Below are positions 2,877-63,480 of a stretch of DNA of 64,000 nt, one piece after another. Positions within the stretch are counted from its first letter, which is position 1, and each line of letters begins with the position of its first letter. This stretch comes from Acidobacteriota bacterium. Its GTDB lineage: Bacteria; Acidobacteriota; UBA6911; RPQK01; G965248645. The translations under genes and the position numbers were made by a program. The DNA lies in assembly GCA_965248645.1 (NCBI GenBank), contig OZ252113.1, forward strand, positions 1,782,590-1,846,589. Reading direction: 5' to 3'. A model generated the notes under the pieces. The model made no database searches. It was not told where the DNA came from and saw nothing but the letters and a program-made list of their open reading frames with translations.

Positions 2877-3069
2877 CTCTGAGGTTGGGGAATAGCGGTT
2901 GGCTGGGGATTTTTCTCTGTGACCGGAACCGACCTTCGAGTTGTTGCTTTGGGCTGATTGGTCATCGTGCGGGTTCTAAAGAAGCCCTGCAGTGTCTGGC
3001 TGTCGAGAGTCTGGAGGCGAAAGAGGGGACCTATGGATACTGACCTGCCCCCACGAACGAGTCCACCCT

Positions 3070-3939
3070 CTAAGTTAGACTCGGAGCCATTTGAAGTGCC
3101 CTGCACGGGATAGAACTGAACTCCTGAGACCTAGGTAGTTTGGCCTCTGGCGCCGGCGGCCGATAGGCCAAGGCGCTGTGAGGCCGGACCTGATTGTAAT
3201 CCCTTCGCCAGCGTTCTACCAACACCTTGGCTTCCCCAAGCGTGTCGAAGATCTCCATGTTCAGCAGCTCATCCCGTAGTTTCCCGTTGAAACTCTCAAT
3301 GTACCCATTCTCCCAGGGGCTGCCCGGCTCGATGTACAAGGTCCTTACCCCAACAGCCTGCAGCCAGTCCCGGACCGCCTGTGCCGTAAACTCTGATCCG
3401 TTATCGGACCGGATAAACTCAGGCACTCCCCGATCAACGAATAACTCCGCCAACCGGTCCAACACGTCTTGGTGATTCATCTGCCGTTTCACATCAATGG
3501 CGAGGCACTCTCTGGTGTACTCATCCAGGATCTTCAATAGCCGAAAGTCTCGCCCATCATGGGTCCGTTCATGCACGAAATCATAGCTCCAGACGTGGTT
3601 TTTGCGAGCCGCTCGTAACCGAACACAGGAACCGTCATTAAGCCACAGTCTCCTTCGTTTCGGCTGTCTGGACGGGACTTTCAGCCCTTCTTGTCTCCAC
3701 AGCCTCTCCACCCGCTTAGGATTCACCTTCCACCCTTCCCCATGAAGTATCGCCGTGACCCGCCGGTAGCCATAACGCCCGTATTGCGTAGCCAACTCCA
3801 CCATCCGGGCCACCAATCGGGCCTCATCATCGGGAATTTGCCTTTCCCTTCGCTGGGTCGATCGAACCTGTCCCAGCACTTGGCAGGCCCGGCGTTCGGA
3901 GACTCGCTCTGCTCCTAATCGCTCTCGTACCCACATCAC
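3070..3939 (-). CDS. IS3 transposase OrfB (DDE integrase core); likely expressed as an OrfAB fusion by -1 frameshifting
   Basis: The rve-type integrase core is recognisable (..[51 protein letters not shown]), with the DDE residue context conserved. Confidence 0.85.
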
Positions 3940-3962
3940 CGCTCGTCTCCTGTTCGCCGGGC

Positions 3963-4241
3963 CTAGAAGTTTCCCGAGGACACTTCCTTCAGGATCTGCT
4001 TGTCCAAAGACAGATCCGCCACCAGCTTCTTCAACCGGGTATTCTCCTTCTCCAACACCTTCAACCTATTGGCCTGGTCCAACCGGAGCCCTCCATACTC
4101 TTTGCGCCACCGGTAGTAGGTCTGCTCGCTCACCCCCATCTGCTTCGACACCTGTCCCACCCTCTGTCCTTGGGCCAGACCCACCTCTGCCTCACGCAGC
4201 TTCATGATGATCTGTTCTGCCCTAAATCGCTTCCCTGCCAT
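3963..4241 (-). CDS. IS3 transposase OrfA (HTH domain)
   Basis: A 92-aa HTH/leucine-zipper-like product (..[32 protein letters not shown]). It lies upstream of and overlapping orfB in the -1 frame. Confidence 0.85.
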
Positions 4242-4577
4242 CCTTGCCTCCTTCCTAAACCGGAAATCCTAACATTCAAACTGGACTCGTTTTAGGGGGC
4301 AAGGGCAAAGACGTTTTAAATAGACCGGTGGCGGGAGGTATCCCAGATAAAACTACTGTCCCAAAAGCTTTTATTAGGTCTGGAGATGTGGATTCTCTCA
4401 ATGATGGTGGTTGCTTGGTTGATGATTGGAGCAGTGGCTGGCCAACCGGTACCCGACGACCGGGAATAAGTTATCTCCGCGCTACCAATATGGCGGAGCG
4501 AGTTTTAGCGGAGCATATCTCTGTGCGACTGGGATTCCTTCCCTAACTTCCAACGTTGTACCCTGATCTTCTATTTC

Positions 4578-5726
4578 TTGCCGAGCAGGAAATCTTTCAT
4601 GGTTCGAAGCCGTCGACGCCAAACTCTTCCGGGTGGCCGGTTGTCCGTTAACCTGGGTGCCGCTTTCGGACCAGCGATTCTGGTTTGGTTGGTCTTTTAC
4701 GGAGATGTTCTAGCCCAGTGCAACCAGATCCTATTTGCCTCCTCCGGCGATGGAATCAAGAACGATTACACACTTCTCTACCATGTCCTTTACGGGCGTT
4801 CAGCTCTCCTTTTCGAAGGGATGGGATATCCATACGGAGAGCACATTCTCTACACTGATAACCAACCGTTGTTGGCAATTACTCTGCAGTGGATTTCAAG
4901 GAATGTTATTGATCTGAGTCCGGTCTTGCTCGGTATAGTAAACGGCATTGTGCTTATCAGTGCCGTCTTGGCCGCCGCCGTTCTCTACGGGATTCTCCGT
5001 CACTATAGAAGGCCGATTTGGTATGCATGTTTGAGCGCAACGGGGATCGCCTTTCTTCCCCCCCCAGAGCCTTCTCGTTTTGGGCCATTACTCGCTTTCC
5101 TACTGCCCGGCAATTCCCCTCTGCTGGTTGCTGCTTCTGAAGTTCGGGCGGAGAAGATCCTGGATTATGGGAGGACTTCTGGCCTTGAACACCCTCTTTT
5201 GGACCGGATTTCATCCCTACTTCCTTCTCATACTTTCCTTTTTCTTGGTGGTGTTCTGGTGTTTTCAGCTGCTTCTTGGCAGTGGGGTTTCAAACGCAGT
5301 GATCTAGCACATTTTGCTTTTCAATTCGGTCTTCCGCTTTTGATGTTCGCCCTTTTCGTGGGTGTGACTGACCCTGATCTTGGTCAGCGGCCATCGCCCT
5401 TGGGCTATGGGCTCTATCGCGCGACACTACCTGGAATACTCCAGCCGTTTGTTTCTCCGCTGGGTCCAGGACTACTCGTTTGCCTCAATCAATTAGGAAC
5501 CTATGCGGAAGGGTTGTGCTGGGTGGGCGTGGGGGTTTCTGTGTTGTTGGTGCTGGGTTTGTCGACACGCCTCGTGGGTCGCCTTCGCCGACATGGCGTC
5601 AAGTACCTTGGGAGAGGTCTCAGGTTAAGCAACACGACTGTATTGTTGGTGGGAATAGCAGCTGTTGGTCTTTGCGATGGGTTATCCTCCTCGACTTGTC
5701 CCAGAATCGGTGCAGGACTGAGATAA
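4578..5726 (+). CDS. large polytopic membrane protein (possibly GT-C-like); reading frame uncertain around a poly-C tract
   Basis: The 382-aa ORF has many hydrophobic segments. The overlapping alternative-frame ORF 5080..5307 is also strongly transmembrane-like (WIMGGLLALNTLFWTGFHPYFLLILSFFLVVFWCF). A C8 homopolymer at 5058-5065 lies inside the gene. Confidence 0.4.
   Translation: MPSRKSFMVRSRRRQTLPGGRLSVNLGAAFGPAILVWLVFYGDVLAQCNQILFASSGDGIKNDYTLLYHVLYGRSALLFEGMGYPYGEHILYTDNQPLLAITLQWISRNVIDLSPVLLGIVNGIVLISAVLAAAVLYGILRHYRRPIWYACLSATGIAFLPPPEPSRFGPLLAFLLPGNSPLLVAASEVRAEKILDYGRTSGLEHPLLDRISSLLPSHTFLFLGGVLVFSAASWQWGFKRSDLAHFAFQFGLPLLMFALFVGVTDPDLGQRPSPLGYGLYRATLPGILQPFVSPLGPGLLVCLNQLGTYAEGLCWVGVGVSVLLVLGLSTRLVGRLRRHGVKYLGRGLRLSNTTVLLVGIAAVGLCDGLSSSTCPRIGAGLR
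5058..5065 (+). other. C8 homopolymeric tract inside the membrane-protein gene
   Basis: Read directly from the sequence. An alternative transmembrane-like frame begins about 15 bp downstream. Confidence 0.6.
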
Positions 5727-5731
5727 TTCCT

Positions 5732-6481
5732 GTGAAGCAGTTTCGCGCCGTAGGTCGGTTCACGTGGATCTTCTACTATTCGTTCACTGTATTCGCATTC
5801 CACTACGCCTACCTACTATATCGCGCACTCGCCATACGAGGGCATGTCCGCCGGGCCCATTTCTTGTTAGTCGTGCTCTTGACCCTCCAACTCACAGAAG
5901 GGTTTTTTCAAGCTCGTGAGGTCTCCAGGACTATTGCGGCTCAATCGGTTCCATGGGGCGCTGGCCGAGTGCAGAGGAGTGGTCCGCTCCCTGAGTGGAT
6001 CCAACTATTGGAGACCAAACCTTATCAGGCGATCCTTCCCTTGCCCTATTACCATGTAGGGTCAGTGGATTTTTCCTATGTGAGTTCGCCACGCTCCAAG
6101 GTATTTTCCATGCTCAGCTCTTTACAGACGGGGTTGTCCTTGATGGCCGTACAACTCAACCGGCTTCCGGACCACCGTAGGCAAGTCCAGATGTCTGTGG
6201 TGCGCCAGGACGATCGGCTTCCGGAATTAATGAAGGCCGTCGATGATCGGAACGTAATTCTGCTCCTCACGAGTCATGAACCCCTCAAACCGGAAGAGAA
6301 GGATCTGATCGAGCTCGGGAGGTATCTCAAAGGTGACGAGAACGTTGTCCTCTACGAACTTGACCCGGATACTTTGTTCGGCGCCCAGTCCTCCCGGCAG
6401 GGAAAAATCCGCCGCAGGATAACCAAGTCCTGTAGGGAAACACGGCCTGTGGCACTTCTACCCCGGAAGCTCATCCTCTGA
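5732..6481 (+). CDS. hypothetical protein; may be the C-terminal part of the preceding membrane protein (GTG start, or a frameshift fusion)
   Basis: In ORF 5480..6481 the N-terminal about 80 aa read like out-of-frame sequence. Plausible protein sequence begins after the stop of the upstream gene. An in-frame GTG sits at 5732, 6 nt after the upstream TAA. Confidence 0.3.
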   Translation: MKQFRAVGRFTWIFYYSFTVFAFHYAYLLYRALAIRGHVRRAHFLLVVLLTLQLTEGFFQAREVSRTIAAQSVPWGAGRVQRSGPLPEWIQLLETKPYQAILPLPYYHVGSVDFSYVSSPRSKVFSMLSSLQTGLSLMAVQLNRLPDHRRQVQMSVVRQDDRLPELMKAVDDRNVILLLTSHEPLKPEEKDLIELGRYLKGDENVVLYELDPDTLFGAQSSRQGKIRRRITKSCRETRPVALLPRKLIL

Positions 6482-6586
6482 TTTGCGGATTTCACCTTCC
6501 AAGTAGCCAGTTTGGACAGTCGCCACTGGGAGATTGCGAAGGTCGGATGGTATCGCCGTAAACTCTTTCTGCGGCTGATATGAGGG

Positions 6587-7499
6587 ATGTCGGTTATGAG
6601 GAATCCTTTAGAGCTTTTTCAAAAGCTCGTTCCTTACATGTCGTATTGGAAGTTGCTGTCTTTGACTGGCCCTGGAGAATCGCTTCTTAATCCAAAATTA
6701 AGTAAGATTTTTGATCTGGTTCGGAAGAATTCCGACTGTACTTTGCTGATGACGACGAACGGAGTTTTGATTAACGAGCGATTGGCCGAGTTGTTCGTCG
6801 ATTATCAGGTTGATGAAGTATCTATTTCTTTGGATAGTCTCACTAAGAAAATCTTCGAAGAGTTGCGAGTGAATGGTCGCTTCGAGAGGGTCATTCACGG
6901 CATCGATATGCTAAATGAAGAAAAGAAAAGACGAAATAGTGACCGGCTCCGGATCAATCTGACCCCAACATTTATGCGACGGAACATTTCTGAATTACCC
7001 AGCTTTATGCCTTTTGCTAGAAGGAAGATGATCAGCGAAGTGAAGGCCTCCCCGGCACAGATCTATCGTCGCAGCTGGGTTGATGAGTCCTTGCTCCACT
7101 GCCCCCGCTCTAACCCGTAAGATGGCGCTGAAGGCGGAGAAAAAAGCCGAGGAGTTGGGGGTCAAGTTCGTCAATAATCTCAAAATGATCTATGTGGATC
7201 AAGGTCCAAAACTTCTAGGTCTAATGAGACGAAAGGAGGTGTTCGATTTTCCCACAGATCCCTCCGCCTGCATGAAACCTTGGACCAGCATCTACATTGA
7301 ACCAGATGGTGAAGTGCGACCTTGTTGCTATCTGAGCCCTGTGTACGGAAATCTTTACCAGAACGACTTTTTAGATCTATGGAATGGAGAAGGAGCTCAG
7401 GAGCTAAGACGAGCCATGGTGGAGAAGGACCTTCCTCGTTCTTGCCGTGAATGTTACGAGTACAACTGTCATGACGCCTCGATCATGATTCAAGTCTAG
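6587..7499 (+). pseudogene. radical SAM / SPASM-domain enzyme, 5-prime truncated (no CxxxCxxC cluster) and frameshifted near 7080-7120
   Basis: LSLTGPGESLLNP matches the GGE-type SAM-binding motif of radical SAM proteins. The second ORF carries a SPASM-like cysteine pattern (CMKPW..IEPDGEVRPCCYL..GNL....LW.......C..C). An in-frame stop lies immediately upstream of the ATG, and no Fe-S cysteine triad is present upstream in any frame. Confidence 0.55.
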
Positions 7500-7719
7500 C
7501 CACGGATTTTCTTACACCTGGGGGTGGCAGGGAGAGGAAGCGGCAGCCTGATCAAGTATGTGACTGGGGCTGGACACTTGGTTTACTCTGTTGAGAAGGC
7601 GGGGGGAGTGTATGGAACTCAGAGCCCGGTGGTCGGTTCGAGAAGGCCGAATTCGACTAAGCGCGTTGTACAGACTCAGGATAAGCACCGGCATCGGTTG
7701 CTGTGGACTTGAGTGTCAG

Positions 7720-8691
7720 TCACGGGACATCTCCAGCACTGAGATCACGAGGGTTGAAATGGGACGTGTCGGCTAGCTTCTCAAAGAGAGCTTTTTCCTC
7801 TTGGGTTAAGCGAGGTGGGATCACAATACGGATTCTTACATACTGGTCGCCTCGCGCCCCATCCTTCCTCTTGAGACCCTGTCCGCGCAGTCTTAGTCGG
7901 CCACCACCCTGAGTTCCACTGGGTATGCTCATTTCGACTGGGCTATCCAGGGTCGGCACTCTTACCTTTGTTCCTAGCACTGCTTCCCAAGGTGCTAGGA
8001 GTAGTTCGATTTGGACATCATCCCCACCGATCACGGAAAAAATCGGATGATGGGCTATTCGAATACGGAGATAGAGATCTCCAGGTGTGCTGATTCCCGC
8101 GCCTACCTGTCCTTTTCCCGCAAGCCGGAGTACTGATCCATCCCGAGTACCCGGCGGAATCTTCACCGTGAGGCGAGATTGATCGAAAGATTGGAGCGCA
8201 ATGGAAGATCGAGCTCCTTGATGAGCTTGGTCGAGACTGAGTTCGATTTCTGCCTCGACATCCCTCCCGGGCGGAGAGAAGGCAGAGTAGGTCTTGGAGG
8301 CTGGTCGTGCACCGCCGGCCCCTCCAAATATAGCCCGAAAAAAATCGCTTGATTGGCCGGAATCTGTAAACAGGTTACCAAGATCACCACCTTGGGAAAA
8401 CTCTACCCTAAAATCCCGCCTAGGGTCTGGAGGAGTGAAAGCAGCACCGGCTCTCCAGTTGGGTCCCAGGCGGTCATACCGTTTTCTCTTGTCAGAGTCG
8501 GAAAGAACGGCGTAGGCTTCCTGGATATCTTTAAACTTTTCCTCAGCCACCTTGTCCCCGGGGTTGACATCGGGATGGTGTCTACGCACTAGGCGTCGAT
8601 AGATTTTCTTAATCTCGCCTAGACTTGCAGCTCGGCCCACTCCCAGAATTGCATAATAGTCCTGGTATTTGACTGCCATGAGGTATCTCAA
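7720..8691 (-). CDS. DnaJ-domain co-chaperone (CbpA-like: J domain plus DnaJ C-terminal domains, no zinc finger)
   Basis: A canonical J domain is present (DYYAILGVGRAAS..IKKIYRRLVRRHHPDVN..KFKDIQEAYAVLSD..KRKRYD, including HPD). The C-terminal part shows a beta-sandwich DnaJ_C-like repeat. Confidence 0.85.
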   Translation of the reverse strand: MRYLMAVKYQDYYAILGVGRAASLGEIKKIYRRLVRRHHPDVNPGDKVAEEKFKDIQEAYAVLSDSDKRKRYDRLGPNWRAGAAFTPPDPRRDFRVEFSQGGDLGNLFTDSGQSSDFFRAIFGGAGGARPASKTYSAFSPPGRDVEAEIELSLDQAHQGARSSIALQSFDQSRLTVKIPPGTRDGSVLRLAGKGQVGAGISTPGDLYLRIRIAHHPIFSVIGGDDVQIELLLAPWEAVLGTKVRVPTLDSPVEMSIPSGTQGGGRLRLRGQGLKRKDGARGDQYVRIRIVIPPRLTQEEKALFEKLADTSHFNPRDLSAGDVP

Positions 8692-9150
8692 TGAGAGATT
8701 TTATTCCGGGCCAATCATCCTATTCTATACACACACCTTCTTGGTGAACAAGCGAGGGTTAAGTGCAGCATTCCAGAGCTACAGTATGTATACCTACGTG
8801 TCAAGTTCCATCAGATGTTTGTATTTGGATTTCACTGATCCCTAAAAGGAGATTCGTGAACCGGGTCTAAGTGGGTTCTTCCATCGGAAAATCTAGCCAA
8901 CTTAACCAGCCAAGAAAAAGGTTCCCTCGATCATGTTAGCCGAAGAGCAAGCGATGGGCTCTGTTCGCGGCCAATTTTCGCAGGGGGTGTTTCAGCAGAC
9001 CGATGATCCAGTCGCCCAACCCCTTGTAGTGGAGGATTACCTACTTTTCGGTAGCCATCTGCTCAGATGATCCCCCAGCTCGAGGCCACAGATCCCGCAA
9101 AAAAAGGACACTATATGGAGTGAACAAATCTCTACTAAATTGATCGGAAC

Positions 9151-9918
9151 ATGTGGTATACTCAAAACGTGGAAAGGGCGGTGGTCATTAAAGGTCTCTC
9201 ATCGGTGAATCACCAGCTGGCCAAGGTTAAGGCGGTGGAGGTGGTGCGGTGGGGATTCGAGATGTTCGGTCAAGGATTAGTGATGAGCACGAGTTTCGGC
9301 ATCCATTCCAACGTACTGTTGCATTTGATTAGTCAAGAAATACCTCGGATTCCTGTGATTTGGATCGATACCGGTTACCTCCCGCGCGAGACTTACCAAT
9401 TTGCTGAGCAGTTGACTTGCCGGCTGGATCTCAACCTCAAGGTCTACCAATCTCCAATAACGCCAGCCAGAATGGAAGCCCGATTTGGTCGCCTCTGGGA
9501 AATGGATAGCAGTGAACGGATTGGCCGCTATGCGTACATGCGGAAAATAGAGCCAATACAACGCGCATTGCGAGAACTGAGGGCAAAGGCATGGGTAGCG
9601 GGGCTCCGTAGGGAGCAAACTGATAACCGGAAGACAGCCTCGATAGTTGCTAAGGAACCTAGAGTATACAAGATCCTGCCGATACTGAGCTGGACTACTC
9701 TGGATATGGAGCATTATGTGAAAAGATATAAGCTGCTTAGTCACCCACTGCAGGAGAAGGGCTATCGCACGGTCGGTGACTGGCATTCAAGCCGCCCGGT
9801 AGAACTACGTGACAAGGAGAGTCGGGATACTCGATTCAAGGGCAACAAGCAGGAGTGTGGGCTGCACTTGTCGCTGACACGTGAAGAGGAGAGAAGTCTT
9901 GGCTCAAGCTGCTTGTGA
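9151..9918 (+). CDS. cysH: phosphoadenosine phosphosulfate (PAPS/APS) reductase, CysH family
   Basis: The PAPS_reduct fold signature is present ([29 protein letters not shown]), with the C-terminal ECGLH motif. Confidence 0.8.
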
Positions 9919-9992
9919 ATCAGAAGGATAAGGCTTTCAAATCGTGCTCCAGAAACACCTGAAAGCCGGGGCTAATCACGGGAAGAAGCGGA

Positions 9993-12278
9993 TCATTTCC
10001 TCATTCTCCTGAGGACTGAATCTCCGTCACCGCCAGCAATTTCGGCAGCAGTGACTACCGCCAAATTGACAATCTCTGTTTCATCTGCTGATGGAGAGAT
10101 GATGTTAATGGCCATCTTCATGCCCAGGAGGATGGGGCCAAGCGCTTCAACGTTACCCAATTGCTGCACCAGCTTGTAGGTGATGTTTCCCGAGTTGAGG
10201 TTTGGAAAGATGAGAATGTTAGCAGGACCACCCAACCAAGGGAAAAGCTCCTCGGCCAAGGTGGGGCTGACGGCATAGTCGGCCTGGACTTCGCCTACAA
10301 TTTTCAGTTCCGGTCTTTGTTTGCGGGCCAGGTGTGCCGCTTGCTGCATTTTCCCGGCAGTGTTTCCGCGAGCATTTCCAAAGTTGGAGTAGGAAATCAG
10401 AGCTACTCGAGGTTCAATTCCTAAGCGTGCGACCACATCTGCACTCAGGATTGAGATCTCCGCCAATTCTTCAGCGGATGGATTGTAGTTGACAGTAGTG
10501 TCAGCGAAAAAGAAAACGCGCTCCCTGGCAATCATGATGTAGAGCCCATAGACGCGTGTTGCTCCCTTGGCCATGCCAATGGTCTGGAGGGCTGGCCGAA
10601 TTGCTTCGGGATAGGTACAGGTGGCTCCCGAAAGCATCCCGTCTGCTTCTCCTCGCCGTAAGAGCATAGCTCCGAAGTAGTTGTTGTTGGAGAGCATCTG
10701 ACGCGCGATCTTAGGTGTAACCCCTTTATATTTACGGAGTTGTGAGAATTCCTCTACTAGCTCGTCAAAGTGTTCATAGGTTTTCGGATCAATGACTTGG
10801 TACTCGCCGGGCTCGATGCCCAGTGCTTGAAAGTGTTTTTCAATCTTTACGCAGTCTCCCAGGAGAATAGGGCGGGCAAACCTTTGAGGAATGATTTTTG
10901 CACAAGCCCCGAGGATCACGTTGGAGGTACCCTCCGGAAAAAGAAGCCTGGTCTCTCGGCGCTGAGCGCGAGAGGTCAACGCCTGAATAATACTGCGGGA
11001 CTGAGAAAAGATCCGCTGTAGTCTGATCGGGTAGTCGTTAAGGTCAATAGATTTTCGTGCCACTCTAGTTTCCATTGCCGCCCTCGCGACTGCCGGAGCC
11101 ACCCAGTACAGGACCCTGGGATCAAAAGGTTTAGGAATAATATATTCGGGACCAAAGGAAAATTCCTGATCCCCGTAAGCTTGAGAAACGATGTACGGAA
11201 CCTCTTTTTTAGCCAAAGCAGCCAGCGCCCGCGAGGCGGCGATCTTCATGGCCTCATTGATTGTTCGGGCCTGAACGTCGAGGGTACCTCGGAAAATGAA
11301 GGGAAAACCCAGTACATTGTTCACCTGGTTGGGATAGTCGGACCGGCCCGTTGCCATTATGAGGTCCTTTTTTGCCGTTTTGGCTACCGCATAATCAATC
11401 TCAGGGTCGGGATTGGCCAGGGCAAATAAAATGGGCCTCTCATTCATGCTGGCTACCATCTCTTTGGTGAAAAGACCCTTTACCGAGAGGCCGAGTGCCA
11501 CATCAGCTCCCTCAAAGGCTTCTGTCAAGTTTCGCCGATCGGTTTTTCGGGCAAACTTTTTCTTCCATGGATTCATGCCCTCGGAGCGTCCTTTGTAGAT
11601 TACGCCCGTACTATCACACATTAGGATATTTTCCAGCTTGGCACCCAGGGTGACCATGAGGTCGGCACAAGCGATACCCGACGCTCCTGCCCCGCTGATC
11701 AGAATTCGGACGTCGCCTGGCTGCTTATCGACGAGTTCCAAGGCGTTGATAAAGGCAGCTCCCACGATAATCGCTGTACCGTGTTGGTCGTCATGAAAAA
11801 CGGGAATGCTGAGTTTTTCTTTAAGAGCTTGCTCGATGATGAAGCATTCGGGTGCCTTGATGTCTTCCAGGTTGATACCGCCAAACGTGGGCTCTAAGTA
11901 TTCGCAGGCTCGGATTACATCCTCCGCAGTTGGAGCGTTTAATTCAATGTCAAAAACATCAATGTCGGCAAAGCACTTGAAAAGTACTCCTTTCCCCTCC
12001 ATGACCGGCTTGCCTGCCAAGGGGCCTATATTGCCTAGGCCCAGGACTGCTGAGCCATTTGTGACCACAGCCACGAGGTTTCCCTTAGCAGTGTATTGGT
12101 AAGCGTTAATCGCGCTTGCATTAATTTCGCGGCAAGGTCCCGCTACTCCAGGAGAATAGGCGAGGGACAAGTCGTCGGCCGTCTGGCAGGGTTTTGTTGC
12201 CACGACCTCAATTTTTCCGCTTCGCCCCTCAGAGTGGTACTTTAGGGATTCGGTTTCCTTGGATATCTTTTGGTTCAT
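9993..12278 (-). CDS. maeB: NADP-dependent malic enzyme (malic enzyme domain fused to a phosphotransacetylase-like domain)
   Basis: The 761-aa product has an N-terminal malic enzyme segment (..[25 protein letters not shown]..) and a C-terminal PTA-like domain. Length and architecture match MaeB. Confidence 0.9.
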
Positions 12279-12975
12279 TATGAGATCCTCGGTACTTTGT
12301 TGTAAAACAATTTGTTGTTCGAATCAAAATATACGCTTTGACTCCTAGGCCCCAGACGGAAAATAGATTGGAGTGTCTATCTTTCCCTTGCCGATTCAAG
12401 GGTCGGGAGAACGTTTACTTGAATCAACTTCGCTGGAACAAACAAGTGATTTCATCGACGAGGAAACGCAGCTATTCTAGCACAGGATAATTCGTGTTTC
12501 GGGAAAAGTCAGAATGCGGTCCAGAGAAACGAACATATGATGTTTCATCAGAACCAGAAACTCCTTGATTGCTGCAACTAATCCTCCTGCAGTAACATGA
12601 TCTAAGGGATGCACGCCAGGGATTGTTTGAAGCGACCTTGGTCTGGGCTAATTTGCTGATTCCTGGTTTGGTGAGGAGCTCCTGACGTCGCCTGATTTCA
12701 GAATGGGACAGGCCCCCTTTTTTTAAGCTTTCCCTTGAGAACCAGGAGTAATGATTTCCGTCCCTTTGATGGTGATCTCCTTGGTGAGTCGCACAAGGTG
12801 GTTCGGTTTCATGTTGCGTTTTCCCGGAAGGAAATGGTTGTCCTCATGTACTCACTGCCTGGCCCACGATGACTGGTCTACCCATCGCCCTGGTGATCTC
12901 TCGATGACCGGCACAGAGGGTTAAGCGGTGTTCTCGGGACACGCGTCCAGCTTAAGCATGATCCCGCGAATCTCT

Positions 12976-15156: not shown

Positions 15157-15187
15157 GCAAGACGCCCTCTTGCTTCTCAAGGAAGGG

Positions 15188-54940: not shown

Positions 54941-55094
54941 TTTGCTCAAATGGAATATGTGGGCTACTACGAATTGATCATACATCAGGGAACCTCACAG
55001 TAACTTAGCTGCAAGGTCGTATGAGAAATATTCAAATTAGACATAGCATTGGCCTTGGTAGAGCAGTGGCTCTGCTTCAAGGAGGTTCGGAGGC

Positions 55095-55895: not shown

Positions 55896-56317
55896 AGAGA
55901 CTAATTAGTACTAGTTTACGACAACAATCCGATTTGTGATCAGTTTGAGATGGTGGATCGCTAGGTCTATCTGCGAACGGGAAAGATGTATCGTGGCGCC
56001 CGGTCCGTAGGCCAGGCGATGCGTGAGTTTGTGTAGGTCCAGTGCTTCTTTAGAGAAGTGTTTTGACCGTCTCCAGTAGCTCCGCAACCTGCGGTCTTGT
56101 CTAGATTGCCTCGGCTTTGCTAGCATCAGACGTATGTGACGCAGGGAAAACGCTCCTCTCGCTAATGCTCCAACCCCAATTACTCGTCTCAGAGAGTGTC
56201 TGGCAAACGCAACAGCGATCAACAACACTTATCTGAAGAAAAACCAGAATGGTATCTTAAATCGGATGTTAGCTGAGGAAATCCGATGTCTCTAGACCCA
56301 TTGATAGGAGATTTAAG

Positions 56318-57193
56318 TCACTCTGTCGCCAGGTTGGCGTTCTCGGAGGCAAGTTCCAGGAGGCAGTTTTCACCCAGTGGCTCGATCGGTGTAAAGTCAC
56401 GATGGGCGATCCATTCCGGTCGCTTAAACTGTCGGATGTGGTTGTCCACGTGACAAAGGCTCAGATACACGATCACGCGGTCCCACGGACTGATGTTGGG
56501 CGCTGATGCGTGCACCATGTTCGAGTGAAACAATAGGACAGCTCCCGGTTTTCCCTTGGGCGCGACTATGCCGCCCTGGTTCGCCAGACGGCTTACCGAT
56601 TCCTTATTGAGTGTCCAAAGCGGATAAGACGTCGTTAGTGTATCGTGGCCCGCCTCGATCACACCCTGCTTGTGGCTGCGTGGGATAAGGTAGAGGGGAC
56701 CGTTGAATTCAGTCACCTCGTCCAGAAACAGCGCGATGTTCATCGCTAGCGGTTTCGGCATCTGATCGTCGCGCGCCCAGGTACCGTAGTCCTGGTGCCA
56801 CTGCCAGACATCACCGCTGAAGGCGGCCTTCCCGTTGATCTTGTACTGGTGTATATATACCGACCCGTTGAGGATTTGCATGATGGGTTTGATTAGGTGC
56901 GGATGGCGCCCCAGGCGGCCGAACGCCTTGTTATAGGTATGTGCAGCGAAGGCCGTGCGAACTGCTTCCCCGTCGTTTTCACGCCAGACCTCGTCACGAT
57001 GCATAGCGAAAATCTTCGGTAATTGGCCCTTGAGGACTTGGATCTCGTCCTGGCCGAACAGATCCGGTAGAAACAGCCAGCCTTCGGTGTCAAACTGCTC
57101 CAGCTGTGCCTTTCTCAGTTTCATGAAACGGTACTTATTTGTTGCCACCCTCTGATTATAAGGGAGCGGCGCTACAATTGTGACTGATCTCAC
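56318..57193 (-). CDS. phytanoyl-CoA dioxygenase (PhyH) family protein
   Basis: The motif is WHQDYGTW .. HSNMVHASAPN. Confidence 0.75.
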   Translation of the reverse strand: MRSVTIVAPLPYNQRVATNKYRFMKLRKAQLEQFDTEGWLFLPDLFGQDEIQVLKGQLPKIFAMHRDEVWRENDGEAVRTAFAAHTYNKAFGRLGRHPHLIKPIMQILNGSVYIHQYKINGKAAFSGDVWQWHQDYGTWARDDQMPKPLAMNIALFLDEVTEFNGPLYLIPRSHKQGVIEAGHDTLTTSYPLWTLNKESVSRLANQGGIVAPKGKPGAVLLFHSNMVHASAPNISPWDRVIVYLSLCHVDNHIRQFKRPEWIAHRDFTPIEPLGENCLLELASENANLATE

Positions 57194-57708
57194 CCAACTG
57201 TTCGCTCCCCATTAGGATACTGCGTTCGCGCTACTTCCAACTCTCCCCTGTGGACGTTTCCTGGTCGCAGTGTGCAACTTCGTAATCTGCGAACTTGTTG
57301 AAACAAAAAGGGGATGGTAGTAACTGTATCCGAAATAGCCGTTATACACAGCGGTTTCTTGGACAAACGGAGCGAAGGCCTTAATGCGAATACTCGATGA
57401 TCATTGGTGTACGCATACTTAACTGGGCCTCGATCTCTTCGCTAAGCCTCGGCAACCCTTTTCTGGGAGATCGATGAAGGCGCCAACAGCGTGGTTGACT
57501 TTGGACGGGAGGATTCGGACAAAGACGAATTCCTAAAGATTCCTGGTTGGAGCCGTACCGTGTCGAATCCAGCGAATCTCACTGATCATGTACTCACACT
57601 CTCCGGCCTTAACTCCAGCACCAGTTACCAGTACCAAGTGGCTTCAACCGATTCGCAGGGAAATGGCCACTCTACCCGTGGGAAGTGTCGTCCCCTAGCT
57701 ACCAGATA

Positions 57709-59036
57709 ATGAAGAAGGCAATTTTTGTCAATCCAAGTTGGGATCGATACGTTAGCCGGCGTGGCACACGGTATAACCGTCATTGGCCTCCTCTAGACCT
57801 CTTAAACTGTGCCGCGATACTGGAGGAGCATGGCTTTCGATGCGTGGTTTATAACCAGCGGATCGAGGACCAATGTGAGGTCCAGGTGGAGGACGAGGAC
57901 ATTGTGTTCGTCACCTCCTCTACACTGGATCGCTGGCAATGTCCGAACCTGGACCTGGAACTATTTGCGCATCGCATCACGCCCTTTCCGGAGGATCGCA
58001 CATATGTTCTTGGAGCACATGGGACCATGGATCCGACTTATGTAGCTAAAACACTTGGTAAGGCTGGGTTAATCCGTGAAGAGCCTGAAATGGCTGTGCT
58101 TCAGATCGCCCTGGGAGAGGATAAACAGGCCATCTCCGGCTTAACCTATCTCGACAAAGGTCAAGTGGTTTCCAATCCTGTTAAGACTCCCCTGCCTCTG
58201 GACCAGTTGGCCGCTCCCGCCTACCATCAAATCGATATCAGCCGCTACGGTTATGAACTTCTTGGAAGTGACTTCGCACTGTTGGAGACTTCGCGGGGCT
58301 GTCCTCATTCATGTAGCTATTGTTACCTGCAGGTATGTCCAAATACCGCTTGAAGTCTCCGCAGCGTGTCGTTGAAGAGGTTCGCACACTGCTCTCGACC
58401 ACACCCACGTGCAATATCTATTTCATCGACCTTGAATTCGCCATTCATCATCGTCACTGTGAAGCAGTGCTGGATGCTCTGCTAGCTTCGGGGTTGAAAT
58501 CCCACTGGTGCTGCCAAACTCGGGCTGACTCGGTGAATTTGGACCTACTACGAAAAATGAAGCGAGCTGGCTGCCGGCTTGTGCACTATGGTGTTGAGAC
58601 TGGCTCGGAGCGGGTTCTGGGGATGGTGAACAAGTATCTTGAGCTGGAGCAAATTCATCGAGCAATTCACCTCACCCGAAAGGCTGGCTTGAACTCGGCC
58701 TGCTTTTTCATGCTGGGCTTTCTGACGGAAACTGAGGCGGAAATCCGCCAGACTATACGCTTTTCCATAGAATTGAATCCCACGTACGCTTCTTTTCATT
58801 TGGCTACACCCTATCCGGGCACCAGTATGTACCGCAACTTTCAAGAGCAACGCGACAGTCAATTCATTCAGGAAACGTACCAACAGGCCCTACCTTTGCC
58901 TAAGTTGAAGGCGCTTCAGCGCAAAGTATATTTAGAATATTACTTACGACCTGCCTATCTCCTTTCGCGCTTTTGGACCAGTCCCTGGGAAAGCTGGCAA
59001 CAAGTTCGTCTGTTTCTGAATTTTGTTCTTAACTAG
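57709..59036 (+). pseudogene. B12-binding-domain radical SAM protein with a frameshift near 58320-58350
   Basis: The radical SAM triad SRGCPHSCSYCY is present. The downstream frame continues with ..KYRLKSPQRVVEEV.. and an Fe-S/radical SAM C-terminal region (..GVETGSERVL..). The N-terminal domain is of Rossmann/B12-binding type. Confidence 0.6.
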
Positions 59037-59860
59037 TGATCCGTAGGACAAGGACTTGACCTGCTCCAACTCGGCTAGAGTGCCTAGCTTGACCATGCAG
59101 TCCAACCTCAGCCAAGTGCAACCACAAGTCAAATAGGGTTTTGACTAAAACTGGGTTCCTCCCGCGAATTTGGATAATCTCTGTCTGTAGTTCAAAGATG
59201 TAAACGACTTTTTTTAGGCCCCGACTTTTTCTCTTTTCAAGTTAAGACAGGCCACTCGGGCTGATCGATTATTTTCCAAGGAAGTGCACGTAATTCCGAA
59301 GCTCTTCAAGCGACAGCACAGTGGTTCCATCTTTGAAAGGCTGCCCGGTCTCTAGCGACCACTGGGCATAAGTTCGAGCCTTGTTGGCAATGTTGAACAG
59401 GTCCCATCGCCCTGTTCTGGTTTCGGGTCGTGCTTGTTTGGAATCTAGGTATACCGGCGCAGTTGGGTTGCGAGTGTGGTGCAGTCACCGCCTGGTGTTC
59501 GTTGTGAGTTTGCAATATAGTCGCTATCTTGCGAATCGAGTCGTCCAGCAGCTGACACTCTGCAAGATCAAGGATATGAGTTTCCGCAACCGAGGTATCA
59601 GCTAAGTCTTTGTCATCTTTCAAATCCCGAACATGGGCCTAGAAGGCAATGCTGTAGACACCTCGAAGGTCGCTAGTTTGGCAATCAGGTTAGGGAAACT
59701 GATGGAAGTGATGTTCATAGACTGAAAGCGCTACTTTTACATATAAAGATACACTTCGTTGGGCTGGCACCCGCCATTGGGGGCACACTAGAGCTACTGC
59801 AGGCTCACCGGTGCTGCGAATCATAGATGTCTCGCTGGGCCCGGGGGTGAGACATCTGGG

Positions 59861-61534
59861 CTAAGTGACACGATGCTCATAGGGACCGAGGTCAGGGTCC
59901 TGGCCCCGATGAAAGTTTTTGCCCAACAGGTACTGAATGTCGAGTTCGACGTCGCGCAAGATGAGCTGAGGGGTGAGAGCAGGATCCCGATACGTAACTG
60001 TTACCAGTAGCCTATTTTGTCCCCTCTTTGGCCAGTGACTCGGATTCAGCTTCCAAACGAACCAATAACCAAAGACGCGGTAGCGCGGAGCACTCATCTT
60101 GTACATACGATTGATTTTTCGTAGCTGTGATTCGGGCAACCGCTTGCCGTTGAGCCGAAATTCTAAGCGGTCAATCTCGGTATGGTTGACTAGTCGTGCC
60201 CGCAGTAGGACTTCGTGGACACGACCCTTTTTGTGCCAGCGTAGAAGATCGTCGGTGATCGTCCACTCAACTCGCACCGGCTGATTGACATGTAAGTCCT
60301 GGGGCAGTTGCATACCGAGTCGGCGCTCCTTGTATTCAATTCCTATTGTTGGCAGGAAGTAGTGTTTGTCTTTGGTTGCCATCAGGTCAGGGTAGGGAAT
60401 TTCTCGGACCTGTTCGTAGAAGGCTCCCTGGTAGGGCCACATGCCGAACCACTGGTCCAAAAGCAGCCCGTCCACCCCTTGTGCCCAGTAGTTACAAGCG
60501 GCTGCACGAGTTGACTGGATGGTGCTATCCGCCAGGCGATCGGAATCGATCAGATGCTTGCAGTCAGCGAGGACGCGACATTTAGATCCCTTGGCAGCCT
60601 GCACCAGGGGACGGAGGTCGAGTGTCTGGTCGATGATCTGAGTACGCGTCGGACTTTGCCCGATGAAGAGATCGACAATGCCCCGACGGATCCAATCGCG
60701 CACATCCAAGCCACGGGAAAAACAGGTCGCCAAGCTCGCTGGGATACGAACGGCCAACTCGCGGTCGCTATCGCTTTGCTTTACGGCCTGGTAGATCTGC
60801 TCGATGAACGCGGTCATGATCTTCCGACCCTCTTCGACTTCGTCTGGGAGAAAGTAATAGGGCATGTAGTCAAGATCCAGTTCGAATCCATCCACCGGAT
60901 ACTTATGGAGCGTCTCTTCGATGATCGTGAAGCGCTCTTGACGAACCTCGTCGTGCTTAAAATCCAGGCCGTACAAACCAGGAAAGTTCGGATCCACACC
61001 ACCACCGGCACCGATCTCAAGATGGGTATTGTTGAAACGAAAGAGAGAGCCTCGCACGTCTGTTTCGCGGTTTCCTCTTCCCAGATTCATGAAGAGGGTC
61101 GGATAGACGAGTAAACCTTTTTCATGTGCCCGATCGCAAATGATTCGTAGAGGATCGTGGCCTTCCTTGATCAGGTGTATAGCATTCTGGTAGGCGCGGC
61201 GATAGATTAGCGATGACCACTTTTTAACCCAATGACCCCATAGTTCACCCACTTTAGTGTCGTGCAGCAGAGTACGGCCGTCTTCGAGGCCAAACATGAT
61301 CGCCTCGATGGGAGTACCCACCAATTCATCAACAGCCGCTTCGTATTCTTCCTTCTGCATCGGGGGCTCGTACACGTAGACCAGTGGGTGCCGTCCGTCG
61401 TGATAAAAGCAGATGATGGGCTTCTTCTTGGTCCTTCGCAACGACGTCTCCGTTTCAGCCTTTGCTTCGGTCGATAGAACACGGCTTCCCAAGCCCGTTG
61501 CCAGTGCTGCCCTAATAAAGTTTCGTCTTTTCAT
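59861..61534 (-). CDS. GHL-like TIM-barrel hydrolase family protein, full length with twin-arginine signal peptide
   Basis: The TAT signal is MKRRNFIRAALATGLG. The motifs DRAHEKG and VDGFELDLDYMPYYF resemble the DG[VIF]x[LF]D motif of GHL10/DUF187-type or GH-A-like barrels. This is recalled, not searched. Confidence 0.7.
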   Translation of the reverse strand: MKRRNFIRAALATGLGSRVLSTEAKAETETSLRRTKKKPIICFYHDGRHPLVYVYEPPMQKEEYEAAVDELVGTPIEAIMFGLEDGRTLLHDTKVGELWGHWVKKWSSLIYRRAYQNAIHLIKEGHDPLRIICDRAHEKGLLVYPTLFMNLGRGNRETDVRGSLFRFNNTHLEIGAGGGVDPNFPGLYGLDFKHDEVRQERFTIIEETLHKYPVDGFELDLDYMPYYFLPDEVEEGRKIMTAFIEQIYQAVKQSDSDRELAVRIPASLATCFSRGLDVRDWIRRGIVDLFIGQSPTRTQIIDQTLDLRPLVQAAKGSKCRVLADCKHLIDSDRLADSTIQSTRAAACNYWAQGVDGLLLDQWFGMWPYQGAFYEQVREIPYPDLMATKDKHYFLPTIGIEYKERRLGMQLPQDLHVNQPVRVEWTITDDLLRWHKKGRVHEVLLRARLVNHTEIDRLEFRLNGKRLPESQLRKINRMYKMSAPRYRVFGYWFVWKLNPSHWPKRGQNRLLVTVTYRDPALTPQLILRDVELDIQYLLGKNFHRGQDPDLGPYEHRVT

Positions 61535-62279
61535 GATTCACCTCCTTCAATGGGTGTGAGCTTCCTGTCAGATTTTCCTATCCGCCCTTAAGGTATGGTT
61601 AAGGTATGATCCAGATGATTCAAATGAGGCGTAATCCAGAAGTTTGGCCGTCACGGTATGGTAGCAAATTGTCCCGGGCGAGTCTGGATCACGGTAGCAG
61701 AGATGTCTCCATTGCTACGCTCTCTGAGCAGACCTTTAAACAGGTCCAGATCAATCGAGTTGTCCCAATCAAACTCGTCCTGGCAACTCAGCACTACTAC
61801 CCACTCCGGCTGAACCTATTTCCCCTCCCGAGAAAACGATCACACCTGCAGATCTGGTCTGAGACATAGCACCCTGAGTCCAGAAGTTGGCTTTCTCGAC
61901 TCTGCTCAAGGCTCAAGACACGAGCATAGATGCCCACGTGGGGCACCTTGGGTTGGGAGAAGTTGTTAGGTTTTAGCATCATCCTTCAGGTCTGCTTTCC
62001 ACCGGATTAATGTTACCTAAATCCTAAGCTACTAAGTCGGGATGTGTCAAGGATAAGTATCTGATATAAAATAGGTTTGTTAATGATCAGGCTCAACATG
62101 GAATCACCAGAAAGTCGCTGAATCGTTGTGTCACGGACCGGGTTGAAATCCCCTCGTAAAGGGGCGTCTTCTGAAAAAGTGTTGGCGGAAAGCTGAAAGA
62201 AAGCAGTTGGAGGTGACCTTGCCCCCTAAAACGAGTCCAGTTCGAATGTTAGGATTTCCGGTTTAGGAAGGAGGCAAGG

Positions 62280-62558
62280 ATGGCAGGGAAGCGGTTTAGG
62301 GCAGAACAGATCATCATGAAGCTGCGTGAGGCAGAGGTGGGCCTGGCCCAAGGACAGAGGGCGGGACAGGTGTCGAAGCAGATGGGGGTGAGCGAGCAGA
62401 CCTACTACCGGTGGCGCAAAGAGTATGGAGGGCTCCGGTTGGACCAGGCCAATAGGTTGAAGGTGTTGGAGAAGGAGAATACCCGGTTGAAGAAGCTGGT
62501 GGCGGATCTGTCTTTGGACAAGCAGATCCTGAAGGAAGTGTCCTCGGGAAACTTCTAG
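62280..62558 (+). CDS. IS3 transposase OrfA
   Basis: The ORF is identical to 3963..4241 except for one substitution (V/A). Confidence 0.85.
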
Positions 62559-62581
62559 GCCCGGCGAACAGGAGACGAGCG

Positions 62582-63451
62582 GTGATGTGGGTACGAGAGC
62601 GATTAGGAGCAGAGCGAGTCTCCGAACGTCGGGCCTGCCAAGTGCTGGGACAGGTTCGATCGACCCAGCGAAGGGAAAGGCAAATTCCCGATGATGAGGC
62701 CCGATTGGTGGCCCGGATGGTGGAGTTGGCTACGCAATACGGGCGTTATGGCTACCGGCGGGTCACGGCGATACTTCATGGGGAAGGGTGGAAGGTGAAT
62801 CCTAAGCGGGTGGAGAGGCTGTGGAGACAAGAAGGGCTGAAAGTCCCGTCCAGACAGCCGAAACGAAGGAGACTGTGGCTTAATGACGGTTCCTGTGTTC
62901 GGTTACGAGCGGCTCGCAAAAACCACGTCTGGAGCTATGATTTCGTGCATGAACGGACCCATGATGGGCGAGCCTTTCGGCTATTGACGATCCTGGATGA
63001 GTACACCAGAGAGTGCCTCGCCATTGATGTGAAACGGCAGATGAATCACCAAGACGTGTTGGACCGGTTGGCGGAGTTATTCGTTGATCGGGGAGTGCCT
63101 GAGTTTATCCGGTCCGATAACGGATCAGAGTTTACGGCACAGGCGGTCCGGGACTGGCTGCAGGCTGTTGGGGTAAGGACCTTGTACATCGAGCCGGGCA
63201 GCCCCTGGGAGAATGGGTACATTGAGAGTTTCAACGGGAAACTACGGGATGAGCTGCTGAACATGGAGATCTTCGACACGCTTGGGGAAGCCAAGGTGTT
63301 GGTAGAACGCTGGCGAAGGGATTACAATCAGATCCGGCCTCACAGCGCCTTGGCCTATCGGCCGCCGGCACCAGAGGCCAAACTACCTAGGTCTCAGGAG
63401 TTCAGTTCTATCCCGTGCAGGGCACTTCAAATGGCTCCGAGTCTAACTTAG
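62582..63451 (+). CDS. IS3 transposase OrfB (GTG start in the track; -1 frame relative to OrfA)
   Basis: The ORF is near-identical to 3070..3939, with three amino-acid differences. Confidence 0.85.
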
Positions 63452-63480
63452 AGGGTGGACTCGTTCGTGGGGGCAGGTCA

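Follow-up and report, generated by a model that had tools for sequence, protein, structure and literature searches.

Insertion sequences of the IS3 family are 1.2-1.5 kb long, leave target duplications (TSDs) of 3-5 bp, and move by copy-out-paste-in transposition via a circular intermediate. They also take part in IS-driven genome erosion of bacteria rich in ISs and pseudogenes; in Burkholderia mallei, for example, IS3-family copies of IS407A stand at synteny breaks and deletions without TSDs. Among 68 events involving IS150, another IS3-family element, in the E. coli long-term evolution experiment, 14 consisted of an IS together with an adjacent deletion of between 14 bp and 48.9 kb (Ngan et al., 2024; PMC11708052). 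None of these 14 adjacent-deletion events carried a TSD, whereas all simple insertions did, and capture at DNA breaks has been proposed as a route of IS integration (Ngan et al., 2024; PMC11708052).

Here we analyze a 64-kb stretch of DNA from an Acidobacteriota MAG (the window, 64,000 nucleotides), in which two IS3-family copies, A and B, bracket about 58 kb. At each copy, DNA that a sister genome possesses is missing. The interval between them is resident chromosome, which did not arrive as a unit and is not inverted at either end. We consider it likely, with a probability of roughly 0.8, that the arrangement arose by two independent IS3 insertions, with either an adjacent deletion or IS-IS recombination following each of them.

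Results

A repeat search of the window returned one inverted repeat pair, with arms of 1272 nt at 3036-4307 and 62214-63485 that are 99% complementary. Base-by-base comparison set the ends of both IS3 copies where their flanks diverge, at TG...CA termini, and the two copies differ by 10 internal mismatches over 1,267 sites. The near-identical inverted pair described in the earlier note is therefore confirmed, but the inner ends given there (4301 and 62220) fall 6 bp short of the true ones (4307 and 62214). The inner flanks reported as agg and cct are the last bases of IRL, inside the IS; the real ones are AAG (4308-4310) and AGG (62211-62213). The terminal inverted repeats are imperfect and about 25 bp long (TGACCTTGCCCCCTAAAACGAGTCC ... 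GGACTCGTTCGTGGGGGCAGGTCA, as defined by flank divergence across 7 copies), and within the window the 24-25-nt end motifs are confined to copies A and B, with 0 expected from shuffles. The IRL of copy A carries a mutation at its third base, reading TGC rather than TGA.

Both copies carry intact orfA (92 aa, HTH_Tnp_1) and orfB (289 aa, rve/rve_3) by Pfam; OrfB also matches HTH_21, and scores 245.6 bits against the NCBIfam model NF033516 transpos_IS3, for which the cutoff is 160. The frameshift region is identical in A and B, and a simulated -1 slip yields a predicted OrfAB of 390 aa with no internal stop. Judged by its sequence, the element is a member of the IS3 family: the transposase model, the two-ORF frameshift layout, the TG...CA ends and the length all fit. 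Because a TSD arises by simple insertion, a missing TSD does not exclude membership in the family. The same IS is present in at least 8 related MAGs. Separately, a solo-end derivative of the element, 49-50 bp long, is scattered across metagenomes.

Table 1. Features of the window discussed in the text, in window coordinates.
Feature	Position	Strand	Remarks
Left (IRR-side) flank of copy A, TAC	3038..3040		Sister homology ends here; sister continues CGTCTTC... (block X)
IS3-family copy A	3041..4307	-	1,267 bp; IRR end 3041, IRL end 4307
Copy A orfB	3070-3939	-	
Copy A orfA	3963-4241	-	
Copy A slippery heptamer G_GGA_AAC	3969-3975	-	
Right (IRL-side) flank of copy A, AAGACG	4308..4313		Sister homology resumes; probable deletion end point
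Resident chromosomal interval between the IS3 copies	4308..62213		57.9 kb
Decayed IS1595-family copy	39531..40566	-	In-frame stops in the transposase frame
Second decayed IS1595-family copy	52355..53390	-	98.4% identical to the first, direct orientation
Inner (IRL-side) flank of copy B, AGG	62211..62213		Sister homology ends exactly; sister continues TATGAAAAG... (block Y)
IS3-family copy B	62214..63480	+	1,267 bp
Copy B IRL	62214-62239	+	
Copy B orfA	62280-62558	+	
Copy B heptamer G_GGA_AAC	62546-62552	+	X_XXY_YYZ type, correct phase, just before the orfA stop
Copy B orfB	62582-63451	+	-1 frame relative to orfA
Copy B IRR	63455-63480	+	
IS256-family transposase gene remnant	63481..64000	-	Codons ~44-216; runs off the window end

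The sister genome is 99.0-99.6% identical to the window and has no IS3 at either site. At copy A, window 1-3040 corresponds to L011 8230-11271 of the sister at 99.3% identity. The alignment picks up again at window 4303 (L011 15636), with its opening 5 bp lying in the IS end, so that genuine homology starts again at window 4308 (L011 15641) and continues to window 6597 (L011 17933). Between these two matches the sister has 4,369 bp (L011 11272-15640), here called block X, which are absent from the window and are replaced by copy A. Block X encodes decayed metabolic genes (TauD-like, isochorismatase) and no mobile-element genes, and no convincing terminal repeats were found for it.

At copy B, L015 9322-19776 of the sister corresponds to window 62214-51740 at 99.0% identity, and homology stops at the first base of IRL. 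Beyond this point, at least 9.3 kb of sister sequence is missing from the window (block Y), of which at least 8.8 kb has no counterpart among the proteins of the source genome. On its other side, the IRR of copy B cuts an IS256-family transposase gene at codon 216, and the window stops 520 bp past copy B, within this remnant. An intact copy from another Acidobacteriota MAG (L009) matches the remnant at 99.2% identity, and a tblastn search with this intact reference found the C-terminal half of the transposase nowhere in the 64-kb window. In a third strain (L016) the arrangement is different again 575 bp inside copy B, which indicates that several haplotypes coexist in these samples.

Protein clusters, used as a proxy for DNA, bear on where blocks X and Y are now. 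All 5 proteins of block X and all 10 of block Y are known solely from the sister contig, being singletons in a 15-billion-protein collection, and none of the 15 has a mate at 90% identity or more on the 3.76-Mb source contig, whereas each of the 7 control proteins taken from shared regions does have one there. As far as protein clusters can stand for the underlying DNA, this fits a source genome that lacks X and Y, rather than one in which they have been translocated.

The flanks read TAC-A-AAG and AGG-B-AGA, the outer ones (TAC and AGA) being as stated in the earlier note. Its observation that target duplications are missing also holds: no pairing of the flanks of A and B gives one. Looking more widely, we found no direct repeat of 2-6 bp at A, B or 5 further independent complete copies (7 in total), and no 3-4-bp TSD at the 8 plasmid-borne relatives of the element that were examined.

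The interval between the copies was compared with the sister at both ends. L011 (reversed) and L015 (forward) lie on one 1.98-Mb sister contig, which places both ends in the same orientation. The ends are collinear with the sister in position and orientation over 5.3 kb at the left end and 12.6 kb at the right (about 18 of the 58 kb, the comparison covering the interval on either side of window 9.6-49.6 kb). Internal content varies between strains: the interval measures 51.5 kb in the sister and is 6.4 kb longer in the window, and GH116 is absent from the sister. The second of the two decayed IS1595-family copies occupies the same site in the sister and in the third strain.

Pfam bore out the genes previously listed for the interval, namely pairs of PSCyt/PSD1 and DUF1501 genes, three PhyH paralogues, GHL10/GHL15-like and radical SAM genes, IS1595 fragments and split genes. 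Pseudogenes and genes of metabolic or housekeeping type are also present, the latter including a maeB-type malic enzyme, a PAPS reductase, a DnaJ-type chaperone and an acyl-CoA dehydrogenase. ORFs cover at most 75% of the window, and many genes are split. GC content is 0.524 in the interval and 0.535 in the left flank, and GC skew stays positive from the flank through each of the eleven 5-kb bins into which the interval was divided. A search for tRNAs and Rfam families gave no match, and the ORFs that were scanned with Pfam included neither an integrase nor any conjugation gene. We considered a genomic island and rejected it, as there is no compositional break, tRNA or integrase, and both ends are present in the sister. 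The term "accessory segment", used for the interval before, does not suit a set of ordinary chromosomal genes that are in place at both ends in a genome lacking the IS3 copies. The outcome that the earlier note named as refuting its reading, a related genome without IS3 at either end and with the DNA between in unchanged order, is what the sister shows over the parts compared.

Discussion

In the history that we propose, copy A would have inserted at ...GGATAC^CGTCTT..., downstream of a cytochrome c peroxidase gene, and would then have lost the 4,369 bp adjoining its IRL. Copy B would have inserted into the transposase gene of the IS256-family element to its right, and would then have lost the DNA on its IRL side back to 62213, including the 3' half of the IS256 element and at least 8.8 kb of chromosome. 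For both copies, the flank on the IRR side would preserve the original insertion site, and that on the IRL side would be where a deletion ended. Neither copy would then be expected to have a target duplication, since the comparison with the sister indicates that one flank of each has been lost. With five outgroup copies used to set the direction of change, at least 5 changes are private to A and at least 3 to B, which means that neither is a fresh copy of the other; the divergence between them (10/1,267) is about that between the strains. The earlier suggestion of independent insertions followed by rearrangement thus comes close to the data. The rearrangement appears to be local loss at each copy and no exchange between A and B: 4.37 kb is missing at A, and at least 8.8 kb and half an IS256 element at B.

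These losses could have arisen in at least two ways. First, the transposase could have mediated adjacent deletion. At each site a single IS replaces sister DNA, with one flank conserved to the base and no TSD, as adjacent deletion predicts, and we slightly favour this mechanism over homologous recombination between directly oriented IS3 copies, though with a little less than even confidence. Second, RecA-type recombination could have occurred between directly oriented IS3 pairs edging X and Y, leaving one hybrid copy at each site. This is a frequent cause of TSD-less copies (PMC11708052), and the outcome would be the same, a single IS with no TSD whose flanks are the outer halves of two insertion sites; the occurrence of the IS in at least 8 related MAGs suggests an active or recently active element. 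However, four insertions and two recombinations would be needed, against two insertions and two deletions, and the second copy at B would need to sit within the IS256 element in the correct orientation. No hybrid signature is visible, and the data do not tell the two mechanisms apart; on balance, we regard recombination as unlikely, though a serious candidate. The event at B could also be part of a larger rearrangement, for example recombination with a distant IS3 copy.

The lack of TSDs may in part be a property of this IS3 lineage, rather than a scar of deletion. The lineage might insert without a TSD, or nearly always with a flanking deletion, because no TSD is seen at any of the 7 independent complete copies (from six or more genomes) or at the 8 plasmid relatives, because both copies that can be compared with an empty site show a loss of at least 4 kb, and because solo-end derivatives occur in metagenomes. 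We think this reading improbable. If true, it would point to an atypical integration route, such as capture at DNA breaks, and the lineage could be a dedicated driver of genome erosion among these uncultured Acidobacteriota.

Could the deletions themselves be illusory? The source is a MAG, repeats are classic points of mis-joining, and the third strain differs again 575 bp inside copy B, so that a contig mis-joined through IS3, or a mixture of strains, might have produced one or both junctions. However, related assemblies look long-read from their names and coverage tags, and such reads would cover a 1.27-kb IS from end to end; both junctions coincide exactly with IS termini; and the X and Y proteins are missing from the whole protein set of the source, as real deletions predict. 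An artefact is accordingly very improbable. Equally, the polarity of the events, deletion rather than insertion, rests on one sister genome and no outgroup; the X and Y proteins of the sister are singletons, as they might be had both blocks been inserted in the sister. Two independent insertions would then have to coincide to the base with both IS3 copies, and the decayed metabolic genes of X, together with its lack of mobile-element genes and of convincing terminal repeats, do not resemble an insertion; we give this reading hardly any weight.

The two readings raised by the inverted geometry itself fare worse. Recombination between A and B could have flipped the 58 kb and scrambled the TSDs, as inverted repeats this long (1.27 kb) and this similar (99.2% identity) would suffice as substrates and no TSDs are present, yet swapping the flanks gives no duplications either (TAC/CCT, CTT/AGA), both inner ends point the same way relative to the left flank as they do in the sister lacking the IS, and the GC skew keeps its sign from the flank through every bin. 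Such an inversion is thus scarcely credible, with both interval ends collinear with the IS3-free sister; the pair could still serve as a substrate for an inversion in the future, but nothing indicates a past one. That the IS3 pair and the 58 kb moved, or can move, as one composite transposon is suggested by two intact, near-identical inverted copies around the interval, like Tn5 or Tn10, but is the least credible reading of all, given that the synteny check finds the cargo, which consists of ordinary chromosomal genes, in its chromosomal position and orientation in a sister with neither IS, that the left flank there joins X and X joins the interval, which therefore never left its place, that no duplication surrounds the unit (TAC / AGA), and that A and B have separate private mutations.

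Two losses, one at each IS3 copy, are therefore our preferred account, and for the annotation of the window it removes a false lead: the 58 kb are ordinary, if decaying, chromosome, and not a mobile unit or island. Comparison with a sister strain explains the missing target duplications better than an exchange between the two visible copies. The locus provides a natural, base-resolved example of IS3-family copies that coincide with deletions, one of 4.4 kb and one of at least 8.8 kb, in a lineage of uncultured Acidobacteriota that also has many split genes and decayed IS elements. Adjacent loss at IS3 copies is already known behavior of the family.

Set against known systems, the locus shares with composite transposons of the Tn5/Tn10 type an inverted pair of intact IS copies around a block of genes, but differs from them in having no duplication around the unit, a cargo in situ and syntenic in an IS-free sister, and arms with separate histories. 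The nearest annotated relatives of the element are entries named 'IS3 family transposase' on plasmids of Paracoccus, Phaeobacter, Sulfitobacter and Rhizobium, with OrfB identity of 64-71%. Like these, it has imperfect TG...CA inverted repeats with a G/C-rich TGACCTGCCCCC-type end, although its host here is an Acidobacteriota. It follows the IS3 family in its length of ~1.27 kb, its orfA (HTH) and orfB (DDE, rve) in the -1 frame and its slippery heptamer, but departs from the family norm in showing no 3-5-bp target duplication at 7 independent complete copies. As in the IS407A-driven erosion of Burkholderia mallei, TSD-less IS3-family copies stand at deletions and many genes are split, a likeness that rests here on the 64-kb window and ~63 kb of relatives. 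In comparison with the IS150 events, the order of events here comes from one sister genome rather than from observation over time, and the deletion at copy B also removed half of another IS. Nevertheless, each site resembles those events in having a single IS where a relative has extra DNA, one conserved flank, no TSD and a deletion size within the IS150 range.

Copies A and B are intact IS3-family insertion sequences

A repeat scan found one long inverted pair in the window, with arms of 1272 nt (3036-4307 and 62214-63485) that are 99% complementary. Base-by-base alignment of the arms delimits an element of 1,267 bp per copy, with 10 differences between copy A (minus strand) and copy B (plus strand). 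The shared sequence runs out at 3041 and 63480 on the outer sides and at 4307 and 62214 on the inner sides, with TG...CA at these ends. The near-identical inverted IS3 pair described in an earlier note on this DNA is thus real; its inner ends had been placed at 4301 and 62220, which is 6 bp short, so that the agg and cct read there as flanks belong to the left inverted repeat (IRL), forming its final bases. The termini of the element are TGACCTTGCCCCCTAAAACGAGTCC and GGACTCGTTCGTGGGGGCAGGTCA, and end motifs of 24-25 nt occur within the window only at the two copies, with 0 expected in shuffles.

Both copies encode orfA and orfB (see table), and OrfB scores 245.6 bits against the NCBIfam model transpos_IS3 (cutoff 160). 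The heptamer G_GGA_AAC lies in the correct phase six bases ahead of the orfA stop, orfB is in the -1 frame, and a simulated -1 slip gives a predicted 390-aa OrfAB with no internal stop. The closest annotated relatives, at 64-71% identity, are genes labelled 'IS3 family transposase' on alphaproteobacterial plasmids. Judged from their sequence, copies A and B are an ordinary, structurally intact IS3-family insertion sequence, an unnamed new member of a very well-known kind whose behaviour is already documented for the IS3 family.

Features of the window and its alignments to the sister genome (L011, copy-A locus; L015, copy-B locus)
Feature	Window position	Size or identity	Detail
orfA, both copies		92 aa	HTH_Tnp_1
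orfB, both copies		289 aa	rve, rve_3, HTH_21
Heptamer, copy A	3969-3975		G_GGA_AAC
Heptamer, copy B	62546-62552		G_GGA_AAC
Alignment to L011 8230-11271	1-3040	99.3%
Alignment to L011 15636-17933	4303-6597	99.4%
Alignment to L011 18144-21107	6598-9561	99.6%
Alignment to L015 9322-19776	62214-51740	99.0%
Radical SAM/SPASM gene	6587-7499		two overlapping ORFs; single 286-aa ORF in sister
GHL10-like gene	18721-20163		probable pseudogene, two pieces
Enolase-superfamily gene	23835-24668		probable pseudogene, lacks most of N-terminal domain
GH116 glycoside hydrolase	28526-30985		intact
IS1595-family copy	39531-40566		decayed, in-frame stops
Sel1-repeat protein gene	47418-48596		six tandem 108-bp units, 63-100% identity
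DAO oxidoreductase	51169-52388		probable pseudogene, split; split in sister too
IS1595-family copy	52355-53390		decayed, in-frame stops; site common to sister and third strain
Radical SAM gene	57685-59036		probable pseudogene, split; split in sister too

Five outgroup copies served to polarise the ten differences between the copies. On this basis A carries at least 5 private changes, one of them at the third base of its left repeat, and B at least 3. The A/B divergence (0.79%) is about that between strains (0.4-1.0%), although the sister, the 99%-identical genome used for comparison, has neither insertion. Most likely, then, A and B descend from separate donor copies, and neither from the other.

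An exact 34-mer of the IS right end occurs at 10 loci in 8 long-read Acidobacteriota/Bryobacterales MAGs. Five of these loci hold complete copies, 96-98% identical to those of the window, and none comes from the source genome. The same copy, with identical 15-bp flanks on both sides, is present in L006 (6020-7288) and L010 (2121-3387), from separate GTDB species representatives; it could be an old, orthologous insertion, or the IS could have entered a different repeat that both MAGs share. The IS right end is also carried by a solo element of 49-50 bp, TGGTCCCAGGTCTAACTTAGAAGGTGGACTCGTTCGTGGGGGCAGGTCA, in many unrelated metagenome contexts (loci L017, L021, L024, L028, L031, L036, L039, L040, L043, L052, L054-L056, L058 and L061), in six of which it directly follows another ...GGGGCAGGTCA end. 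The solo element has no target-site duplication (TSD) and does not occur in the window; a miniature derivative and a by-product of transposition are both possible origins.

Both copies stand where a close relative carries additional DNA

A single 1.98-Mb sister contig (ENA ERZ25067264, ctg836451_25x_l) carries both L011 and L015. It encodes a 99%-identical homologue of the cytochrome c peroxidase left of copy A and, in L015, a counterpart of the GHL10-like gene left of copy B. At the copy-A site, the first 5 bp of the second L011 alignment overlap the IS end, so true homology restarts at window 4308 (L011 15641). The sister has no IS here and carries 4,369 bp, block X, between ...GGATAC and AAGACG..., with TauD-like, isochorismatase and fragmentary ORFs. 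Block X starts with CGTCTTC and ends at GAAGACG, a 6-7-bp inverted repeat (L011 11272-11278 and 15640-15646) that falls exactly on the two deletion end points (window 3040/3041 and 4307/4308). With 79 inverted pairs of similar quality in 4.7 kb, this repeat is probably due to chance. The mutated third base of the copy A IRL creates GGGC, which is common to the sister at the junction.

At copy B, the match to L015 stops at the first IS base, and the sister runs on for 9.3 kb not found in the window (block Y: a luciferase-like fragment, a split glutamate dehydrogenase and others). Directly right of copy B, the IS3 end truncates a minus-strand IS256-family transposase gene, which runs off the window. 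An intact IS256-family element in another Acidobacteriota MAG (L009 2460-3659, one of the 10 loci with the IS3 right end) is 99.2% identical to window 63481-64000; compared with it, the window transposase gene, of 399 codons when complete, breaks off at codon 216. Using the intact protein in tblastn, we found no trace of the missing half near copy A or anywhere in the window. Simple insertion thus does not account for copy B, whose lost flank does not lie beside copy A; a simple exchange of flanks between A and B is also ruled out. The MAG with the intact element (CBDBGQ010000056.1) is otherwise unrelated to the window over the 8 kb seen, and the high identity of the two IS256 sequences therefore suggests recent horizontal spread among these lineages. 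The sister and relative loci examined, 63 kb in all, contain neither IS3 nor IS256 sequence.

The fate of blocks X and Y in the source genome was followed with a protein-cluster proxy, in which sister proteins were checked for a mate at >=90% identity on the 3,761,457-bp source contig, at the level of protein rather than DNA. The protein set is tied to the window by P0361 and P0362, which are identical to window proteins. A mate was found for 7/7 control proteins from shared regions, for 0/5 proteins of block X, and for 0/10 of block Y (0.3-8.8 kb beyond the junction). Among the called proteins of the source genome there is thus no counterpart of block X, nor of Y over at least 8.8 kb.

A third, 99%-identical strain (L016, a 36.9-kb contig) leaves both window and sister at window 61639, marking the right border as a rearrangement hot spot. 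Its positions 1-9896 hold an IS1595 copy with sequences 77-88% similar to window 61565-62206 on either side, indicating that the DNA just inside copy B has decayed and been repeatedly rearranged.

The interval is in place and is not inverted at its ends

Pfam scans of 50 ORFs bore out the gene list of the earlier note for the 57.9-kb interval (4308-62213): PSCyt/PSD1 and DUF1501 pairs, three PhyH, GHL10/GHL15-like and radical SAM proteins, together with IS1595 fragments and several split genes. Ordinary chromosomal genes also lie within it, encoding a DnaJ-type chaperone, PAPS reductase, a malic enzyme-PTA fusion, short-chain, 2-hydroxyacid and acyl-CoA dehydrogenases, and a MetE-like protein. 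Among the scanned ORFs there was no integrase or conjugation gene, and the window gave no tRNA and no Rfam match. GC content is 0.524 in the interval versus 0.535 in the left flank, and GC skew is positive in the left flank and in all eleven 5-kb interval bins.

The record coordinates of L011 and L015 place both interval ends in the same orientation in sister and window. The interval thus keeps its place, and neither end is inverted. It spans 51.5 kb in the sister, and the additional 6.4 kb of the window lie within 9.6-49.6 kb. The best match to the GH116 glycoside hydrolase in a 5.8-billion-protein collection that includes the sister has only 75% identity, so this gene is missing or broken there, and part of the interior is strain-specific. 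An apparently diverged patch at 49.6-51.6 kb (93.7% to the sister) proved to be blocks of 98.8-99.3% separated by small indels. Only some 1 in 17 window proteins has an identical counterpart in the sister, and ORFs of at least 92 aa cover at most 75% of the window. The two IS1595-family copies are 98.4% identical, in direct orientation and 12.8 kb apart, and form a potential deletion substrate. Just upstream of the radical SAM/SPASM gene, 210 bp of the sister (L011 17934-18143) are missing from the window at 6597/6598.

The earlier note had raised independent insertions followed by rearrangement as a possibility, for a segment that it called accessory and whose inverted IS pair it described as composite-transposon-like and a substrate for large inversions. 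The first reading stands; an accessory, composite or inverted unit does not, as the fetched parts of the sister show the same gene order with no IS3 at either end. A composite transposon fails on three counts: there is no duplication around the unit, its cargo lies in situ in the sister, and its arms have separate histories. Inversion of the interval fails because both ends are collinear with the sister, swapping flanks restores nothing, and GC skew is unchanged. A genomic island is not supported either, with no compositional or tRNA signature and no integrase among the scanned ORFs.

Proposed insertion followed by adjacent loss

Two separate IS3 copies each stand exactly where a close relative has extra DNA. 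In our proposed sequence of events, copy A would first have entered GGATAC^CGTCTT, after which 4.37 kb were lost from its IRL side. For copy B, insertion into the IS256 element to the right would have been followed by a loss, again on the IRL side, that reached back to 62213 and took at least 8.8 kb together with the 3' half of IS256. Alternatively, the polarity may be the mirror image, or pairs of direct IS3 copies may have recombined.

In IS orientation, copy A is preceded by cgtctt and followed by gtatcc, and copy B by ttggagg and agatct; partner flanks, if other IS3 copies carry them, would be CGTCTTC (the start of block X), TATGAAAAG and the IS256 3' half ending AGA. As the earlier note had it for the outer flanks, there are no target duplications: no 2-6-bp direct repeat joins any pairing of these flanks (same copy, inversion-swapped, outer-outer or inner-inner). 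A 3-4-bp TSD was likewise seen at 0/7 independent complete copies of this IS, A and B included, and at none of 10 genome loci, 45 metagenome loci and 8 plasmid relatives, the plasmid contexts being mosaic and that sample not clean. There is thus a small chance that this IS3 lineage inserts atypically, bearing in mind the mosaic plasmid sample. A related 1,217-bp IS3-family element, in six copies on Paracoccus, Leisingera and Ruegeria plasmids (L064-L069), also lacks 3-4-bp duplications; three of the six show a 2-bp end match, and at least one lies between unrelated sequences, so this sample is not clean.

Blocks X and Y could instead be insertions in the sister, or the junctions could be assembly artefacts, but both are unlikely given that each break point falls on an IS terminus to the exact base. 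Intramolecular replicative inversion expects inverted TSD copies at one copy's inner and the other's outer flank; the observed pairs, AAG/AGA and TAC/AGG, do not fit this pattern, and the interval is not inverted.

Insertion with adjacent loss, as proposed for copies A and B, matches the documented behaviour of IS150, an IS3-family element. Of 68 IS150 events in the E. coli long-term evolution experiment, 14 combined the IS with an adjacent deletion, of 14 bp to 48.9 kb; these events had no TSD, which was present in every simple insertion (PMC11708052).
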